Origin: Escherichia phage EC3-1
Reading direction: 5' to 3' (one strand)
Sequence record: PQ571288.1
Length of the DNA stretch: 44,405 bases
Part shown: piece after piece, positions 41,104-41,541 of the stretch
How the letters are laid out: each line of letters begins with the position of its first letter
How positions within the stretch are numbered: position 1 is the first letter of the stretch
The notes under the pieces: model-generated
The model's input: the letters and a program-made list of their open reading frames with translations, nothing else
The model's database searches: none
Told to the model about the DNA's origin: nothing
Translations under genes and position numbers: made by a program

Positions 41104-41541
41104 TTATCCTAATAGTTGTTTGGTAATAATCTTGCCGCCGGTATTGGTGTCGAATTGCGCGGCTACGGTAATCGCGCGTGTCGCTGTATGGCCTAAATAC
41201 ATAGCCGCAAGCGCATAAGGCGAGCCGGACCCCACGGCGGCAAAGCTGTCCGCAACAGGAACAACCGAACTAAGTGCACAATCCCACGATTTGTAGAACG
41301 CTACTTTGCACAACGTTTCGATGTCTTTAACCCACACCAAAGCAGAGAAATCAAAATCATAATGCTTAGGCACTAAAATACTATCGTCCTTCACTAAAAG
41401 GATACCAGCTTCAGCATTACCCGCTACACCGATAACAACAAACTCGTTCTCGTATATCTTGGTATCTGTGTTGTAGATGTGGTCCCCGGCTACTCGGGTG
41501 TCACAAGCCATCGTCTTTCCGTCGAATGCGATAGTAGTCAT
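41104..41541 (-). CDS. HslV-like Ntn-hydrolase (proteasome-type threonine peptidase homolog)
   Basis: N-terminal MTTI with Thr right after Met as in HslV; VGSGSPYALAAMYLGH aligns with HslV IGSGGPYAQAAARALL; 145 aa. Confidence 0.6.
   Translation of the reverse strand: MTTIAFDGKTMACDTRVAGDHIYNTDTKIYENEFVVIGVAGNAEAGILLVKDDSILVPKHYDFDFSALVWVKDIETLCKVAFYKSWDCALSSVVPVADSFAAVGSGSPYALAAMYLGHTATRAITVAAQFDTNTGGKIITKQLLG

Follow-up and report, generated by a model that had tools for sequence, protein, structure and literature searches.

The window, by which we mean the whole stretch of 44,405 nucleotides analysed here (Escherichia phage EC3-1, PQ571288.1), reads as a complete, Kagunavirus-like phage genome. 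Its plus strand carries the replication genes (helicase-primase, DUF2800 nuclease, DNA polymerase A and SNF2 helicase). Its minus strand runs from small genes through a proteasome-like gene of the PPH family, two holins, an endolysin and further small genes to the terminase subunits and portal, and then through the MuF-like protein, Hoc-like decoration protein, scaffold, major head protein, adaptor Ad1, tail tube, tape measure and tailspike. The region around the PPH gene is 85–90% identical to Kagunavirus genomes (Guernseyvirinae siphophages of E. coli), and the same block is carried by more distant Jerseyvirus phages of Salmonella. The PPH gene and its immediate neighbours are the following.

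41538..41840, minus strand: 100-aa ORF, function unassigned (phrog_9632), upstream of PPH, its TGA overlapping the PPH ATG
41104..41541, minus strand: PPH-family proteasome-like Ntn (N-terminal threonine) peptidase gene, 145 aa
40736..41044, minus strand: holin (phrog_2359), same strand as PPH and 59 bp beyond its end
40471..40743, minus strand: second holin (phrog_2508)
40005..40544, minus strand: endolysin (Pfam Phage_lysozyme), the listed ORF starting at TTG

The PPH ORF consists of 145 codons and a TAA stop, and its product reads MTTIAFDGKTMACDTRV...AVGSGSPYALAAMYL...KQLLG at its start, middle and end (full-length protein: MTTIAFDGKTMACDTRVAGDHIYNTDTKIYENEFVVIGVAGNAEAGILLVKDDSILVPKHYDFDFSALVWVKDIETLCKVAFYKSWDCALSSVVPVADSFAAVGSGSPYALAAMYLGHTATRAITVAAQFDTNTGGKIITKQLLG). 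The ATG has a GGAG 6 nt ahead of it and overlaps the stop of the 100-aa ORF (ATGA, 41541-41538), an overlap that suggests translational coupling of the two. This upstream ORF is kept in 20/20 Guernseyvirinae loci examined and is missing from distant PPH loci. When the PPH gene was compared with nine Kagunavirus orthologues dN/dS was 0.05–0.20, while in two more comparisons with Jerseyvirus synonymous sites were saturated. We found 266 close homologues, the nearest 96% identical, with the exact sequence absent from a collection of 15 billion proteins. At E<=1e-3 an exhaustive HMMER search returned 1717 cluster representatives (50% identity), which with few exceptions are 135–155 aa long and aligned from residue 1. 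The ORF is a real and conserved gene under purifying selection, not a chance reading frame.

A preliminary description of this DNA had placed the gene among lysis and small genes, and this agrees with what we observe, as two holins and an endolysin follow on the same strand and small genes precede. Among the latter, 42290-42936 (minus strand) holds two conserved genes, one of 67 aa with a hydrophobic N-terminus (phrog_3766) and one of 148 aa with a coiled coil and a Cys-rich C-terminus (phrog_6094). Between PPH and the first holin no terminator-like site was predicted, in a promoter and terminator scan of the window that did not rise above shuffled background and is a weak hint only. The same scan picked out terminator-like hairpins with T-runs at 43162-43183 and 37792-37807 (both minus strand), which bracket a possible transcription unit that would begin with the 148-aa gene, take in PPH, the lysis genes and the small genes, and stop just before TerS. 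The listed endolysin ORF overlaps the second holin by 74 nt; its true start is probably downstream of the TTG, since relatives annotate a shorter protein (489 nt, ~162 aa). Among the ORFs neighbouring the lysis cassette (39300-41050, minus strand) we saw no Rz/Rz1-like or unimolecular spanin.

Assignment of the protein to a family depended on profiles rather than on single-sequence searches. The query had no match in Pfam, even at E 10, and its NCBIfam matches were sub-threshold (20S beta at E 0.024, HslV at E 0.049). Against the HslV models it scored 13.4 bits where the cut-off is 157.75 (TIGR03692) and 12.9 where it is 137 (PRK05456). In PHROGs it matched phrog_1040, 'peptidase HslV family', at E 2.4e-34. 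The preliminary description had proposed a proteasome/HslV profile search as a check, and a profile of 136 family members did yield significant matches in the PDB, to the Betaproteobacterial proteasome homologue BPH (3.6e-10), to HslVs (3.9e-10 to 4e-8) and to 20S beta5 (~1e-8). When searched singly, 70/136 members likewise matched Pfam Proteasome (PF00227) with E<=0.01, the lowest value being 1.4e-10; this places the query in the superfamily by transitivity. Comparison by hhalign with E. coli HslV, the sequence of which was entered by hand, gave a probability of 96.6% and E 6.4e-10, and in it the segment GSGSPYALAA (residues 104-113) aligns with GSGGPYAQAA, as had been claimed. The top phmmer match of the query in the PDB was a 4-carboxymuconolactone decarboxylase (E 4e-4, over a short AFY-x-W segment); we dismissed it as a chance match, since both the family profile and the fold search led to proteasome homologues alone. 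Two different family queries matched 412 and 541 phage records, and a family match was present in 285 IMG/VR stretches and in prophage contexts of bacterial genomes as well.

A structure prediction, also proposed earlier as a check, gave a monomer with the proteasome-beta (Ntn hydrolase) fold, and a fold search with this model returned proteasome homologues only. The protein does begin MTTI, with Thr right after Met as described. Numbered with Met1 counted, the predicted catalytic positions and their conservation are the following.

Thr2, counterpart of proteasome Thr1: Met-Thr start in 138/150 best representatives, Met-Ser in 5 more
Asp14, counterpart of proteasome Asp17: 136/136 members
Lys28, counterpart of proteasome Lys33: 135/136 members
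Gly41, counterpart of proteasome Gly47 (oxyanion hole): 134/136 members
Gly104-Ser105-Gly106, counterpart of the proteasome Ser129 motif: both Gly in 136/136; at Ser105, 122 Ser and 10 Thr
Asp131, counterpart of proteasome Asp166: 129/136 members

As judged from alignment, counterparts of the proteasome catalytic residues are present in the query and are nearly invariant across the family. Because Thr directly follows Met1, the protein has no propeptide. Methionine aminopeptidase tolerates Thr at the position after Met, so the nucleophile would be exposable without autoprocessing. In the model a single helical segment (43-56) separates strands 35-41 and 65-71, and the chain ends 3 residues past the last strand (138-142), with no S12/H5 and no C-terminal extension. 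The Guernseyvirinae clade of PPH carries a lineage-specific insertion at residues ~83-93 (YKSWDCALSSV), with pLDDT <50 at 86-90, and is without the Trp that closes helix H1 in most members.

PPH is the phage proteasome-like family of Fuchs et al. 2021 (PMC8665760), with WP_042125023.1 as a representative. It was described as ~140 aa long, without propeptide, H2 or S12/H5, as radiating from the BPH cluster, and as found in Caudovirales and prophage regions (PMC8665760). The query resembles this description in its length (145 residues), its Met-Thr start without a propeptide, its counterparts of Thr1, Asp17, Lys33 and Gly47, its lack of H2 and S12/H5, its occurrence in tailed phages and prophages of Proteobacteria, and its nearest solved relatives, which are BPH and HslV; there is no material difference beyond the Guernseyvirinae insertion and the missing H1 Trp. 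The query belongs to the PPH family, to judge from the written description, which it matches in every feature that could be compared.

With HslV (ClpQ) PPH shares the predicted Ntn fold, an N-terminal Thr exposed by Met removal (presumably so in PPH), counterparts of the catalytic residues and a GSG-x-PYA motif, in which the query GSGSPYALAA aligns with GSGGPYALAA of T. maritima HslV. However, identity at the profile level is ~24%, and HslV has ~175 aa with H1 and H2 both present, whereas PPH is ~30 residues shorter and H2 is deleted. HMM and hhalign alignments locate the difference in ~17–20 residues that PPH lacks between H1 and the next strand, which correspond to H2; it also lacks ~9 residues of the H3-H4 loop. 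HslV is moreover encoded with hslU, and no hslU is found in the window genome or in the related loci inspected. By profile and fold search PPH is as close to BPH and to 20S beta subunits as it is to HslV. BPH (PDB 5ovs) is the product of a chromosomal bacterial gene while PPH is that of a phage gene, and BPH has ~200 aa, keeps H2 and has a long acidic pore loop (PMC8665760). The 20S beta subunits differ from PPH in their propeptides, in H2 and H5, and in assembly with alpha rings. Connectase is distinguished by a two-helix insertion between S3 and S4 and absence of the first helix pair, an architecture that the query does not have.

The preliminary description had called the product an HslV-like threonine peptidase. 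What stands is a predicted proteasome/HslV-like Ntn fold with an N-terminal Thr and conserved putative catalytic residues; what does not stand is the identification with HslV, given the score far below the HslV cut-off, the absent H2 and the equal closeness of BPH and 20S beta. The query is not an HslV orthologue. The earlier claim is right at the level of the superfamily and adds nothing to published or annotated knowledge. The finding as such is not new, because the PPH family is published, because Kagunavirus and Jerseyvirus orthologues in GenBank are already named 'HslV family peptidase', 'protease' or 'ATP-dependent protease', and because HslV encoded without HslU has already been remarked for jumbo-phage homologues (PMC7823757). 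What we add to published work is that PPH genes often lie in late gene modules. Literature searches found no biochemical or genetic work on any PPH.

It had also been claimed that the genome holds no HslU-like AAA+ gene, and we reach the same result. A Pfam search over all large ORFs of the window recognised no HslU-like or other AAA+ unfoldase, the only P-loop ATPases being the helicase-primase (AAA_25), the SNF2 helicase and the terminase. Nor did the window yield a recognisable prohead protease; its head module has a scaffolding protein.

We compared gene neighbourhoods of PPH across 112 loci (80 from IMG/VR, gathered by a locus search that used a 28-sequence subset of the alignment, and 32 from bacterial genomes), in which ORFs were called and clustered and recurrent neighbours were named with PHROGs. 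No conserved ATPase and no universal partner lies next to PPH in the 112 loci. Five kinds of arrangement recur. In the first, the order PPH, holin, holin, endolysin, small genes, TerS, TerL, portal, MuF is found in the window, in 20/20 Guernseyvirinae loci and in GenBank relatives; three loci of distant phages and prophages with PPH only 32–38% identical (L029, L097 and L120) keep this order, with PPH followed by holin and/or endolysin, an Rz-like gene, TerS, TerL, portal and MuF. This synteny may be inherited, as these three loci and Guernseyvirinae share homologous terminase and portal genes. In the second, PPH is directly upstream of TerS or TerL (L030, L033, L042 and L106). In the third, found in the Xanthomonas Pradovirus phiXc10, a podophage, the order is lysozyme, spanins, PPH, with PPH as the last gene of the late operon and overlapping the end of the o-spanin gene. 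In the fourth, seen in 12 viral loci and 6 bacterial ones, PPH is packed without a gap or with overlap between Ad1 (phrog_477, E 2.8e-49) and Hc1 (phrog_161), and Neck1 and the tail terminator come next; in one further bacterial locus, L095, PPH precedes Ad1. In the fifth, 14 loci have the order scaffold, major head protein, phrog_14539, PPH, phrog_14605.

Overall, packaging, head or neck genes lie within 6 kb on the same strand in 52 of the 89 non-Guernseyvirinae loci. About 40% of the distant loci have no recognisable late gene nearby and are heterogeneous, some having the look of regions of small accessory genes. The position of PPH within the late region is not fixed, since Ad1 of the window, which belongs to the same family, is followed by a different gene. 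Structural genes form a large share of any phage genome. The placement in late modules may be taken, on gene order, as evidence that PPH is co-expressed late; any tie to assembly or lysis is no more than hinted at, and not every lineage is independent.

A single neighbour is tightly coupled to PPH, and this in one lineage, namely a Zn-ribbon metallophosphoesterase. In six loci of Xanthomonadales-type phages or prophages (L028, L029, L036, L097, L098 and L120) phosphoesterase homologues (37–38% identity, E 1e-77 to 1e-82) lie directly upstream of PPH with overlapping stop and start. The window has its own copy at 23647-24777 (plus strand; 'DNA repair exonuclease', phrog_704, E 1e-164), which together with an HNH endonuclease at 24774-25244 (plus strand) forms a plus-strand island within the minus-strand tail module. 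The phosphoesterase and PPH thus co-occur in both lineages and are adjacent only in the Xanthomonadales-type one.

We favour, with a probability of about 75%, the reading that PPH is a stand-alone N-terminal-threonine peptidase that is made late and does not need HslU. Host methionine aminopeptidase would remove Met1 and expose Thr as the N-terminal nucleophile, and the protein would then assemble into a ring-type oligomer like its homologues and cleave as a threonine peptidase without HslU. It would be expressed along with the lysis and morphogenesis genes, and its target would be some phage or host peptide or protein. The late timing is read only from gene order and from the absence of a predicted terminator, and independence from HslU is read from the missing H2 and the absent partner gene. 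Free HslV is nearly inactive, and to our knowledge no activity has been found for BPH, so that an intact catalytic set does not by itself prove stand-alone activity. A narrower form of this reading, in which PPH is a late, unfoldase-independent proteasome-like enzyme dedicated to virion completion or lysis, for instance at the head-tail connector, is in our estimate unlikely; if true, it would be the first morphogenetic or lytic role for a viral proteasome-family protein.

Several more specific roles can be weighed against the neighbourhood data. PPH could be a morphogenetic protease or a virion-associated protein that processes or binds head, neck or packaging proteins during assembly. Its tight insertion between Ad1 and Hc1 in 12 viral and 6 bacterial loci together with the PPH-Ad1 order in L095, its position directly after the major head protein and phrog_14539 in 14 loci, its place immediately before TerS or TerL elsewhere, and a head module in the window in which a scaffolding protein but no prohead protease was recognised all speak for such a role. 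However, scaffold-dependent heads of the window's type usually mature without proteolysis, and the Guernseyvirinae PPH lies outside the head and neck module even though the modules are homologous, sharing their Ad1 and scaffold PHROGs. Furthermore, our literature searches found no virion proteome reporting PPH, and late operons often harbour accessory genes. We regard a morphogenetic role as improbable.

Proximity to lysis genes points in another direction, namely that PPH is a lysis accessory or a host-directed (e.g. counter-defence) peptidase which is released or activated late and cuts a host envelope or defence protein. PPH directly adjoins lysis genes in Guernseyvirinae, in Xanthomonadales-type prophages and in Pradovirus, three settings that have diverged from one another, and no spanin was recognised beside the lysis cassette of the window. 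The synteny between Guernseyvirinae and the prophages may nevertheless be inherited along with their homologous terminase and portal, and most PPH loci have no lysis genes nearby. Spanins moreover adjoin PPH in the prophages and in Pradovirus, so that PPH is no spanin substitute there. Such a role is not, in our judgement, a probable one.

The preliminary description raised the idea that the phage protein hijacks host HslU. In this explanation PPH docks on hexamers of host HslU, in place of host HslV or in mixture with it, and redirects ATP-dependent degradation for the benefit of the phage. The host, E. coli, possesses HslU, the similarity of PPH to HslV is significant at the profile level, and the isolated phages with PPH found here infect mostly Proteobacteria, most of which have HslUV. 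Against this, helix H2 and ~20 residues of the H1-H2 segment are deleted in PPH, and H2 belongs to the apical helices of HslV that face HslU and transmit activation. There is also no HslU-like gene beside PPH in the neighbourhoods examined, and PPH is at least as close to BPH, which has no known unfoldase (PMC8665760), as it is to HslV. Our evidence, which is indirect, lends the hijack no support, and we give docking on host HslU only a slim chance. That PPH is instead a specific transpeptidase, ligase or amidase and not a protease is very improbable, its one support being that the superfamily holds a ligase, connectase, along with many uncharacterised forms (PMC8665760).

The family is large. 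Its members fall into 1717 clusters at a 50% identity threshold, the isolated phages that carry it number in the hundreds, and its carriers include therapeutic Kagunavirus and Jerseyvirus candidates as well as SPN3US-like jumbo phages. PPH is the smallest proteasome-type subunit described, and it could reveal what a proteasome-like active site does without an unfoldase. Its recurrent placement in late modules (lysis, packaging, neck) suggests where its function should be sought.

Some family members occur in settings that deserve separate mention. Three Kagunavirus-/Jerseyvirus-like PPH genes, 62–77% identical, lie on short contigs (L090, L091 and L092) binned in a Bacillota MAG, a Bacteroidota isolate (Taishania) and a Novosphingobium assembly; these placements most likely reflect phage contamination or mis-binning and not true hosts. 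Erwinia phage RAY gp116 is reported to be a nucleus-localised protein of the 'HslVU family' (bioRxiv 10.1101/2023.02.24.529968). We dropped a link between PPH and this protein, as there was no RAY record in one full tblastn search nor among the matches listed of another; gp116 may for this reason be a different protein from PPH. SPN3US-like jumbo phages carry a PPH-like gene of 157 aa (L122 1-474 in Erwinia phage Huxley; 1186-1665 in SPN3US) at or near the conventional genome start, beside tRNA genes and a TerB-like tellurite-resistance gene. Finally, Vibrio phage 1.187.O (MG592553.1; L005 3001-3804) encodes a 267-aa 'nucleophile aminohydrolase' the N-terminal 138 residues of which match PPH, and this protein may be an RPC, the PPH-related form with a C-terminal extension described by Fuchs et al.
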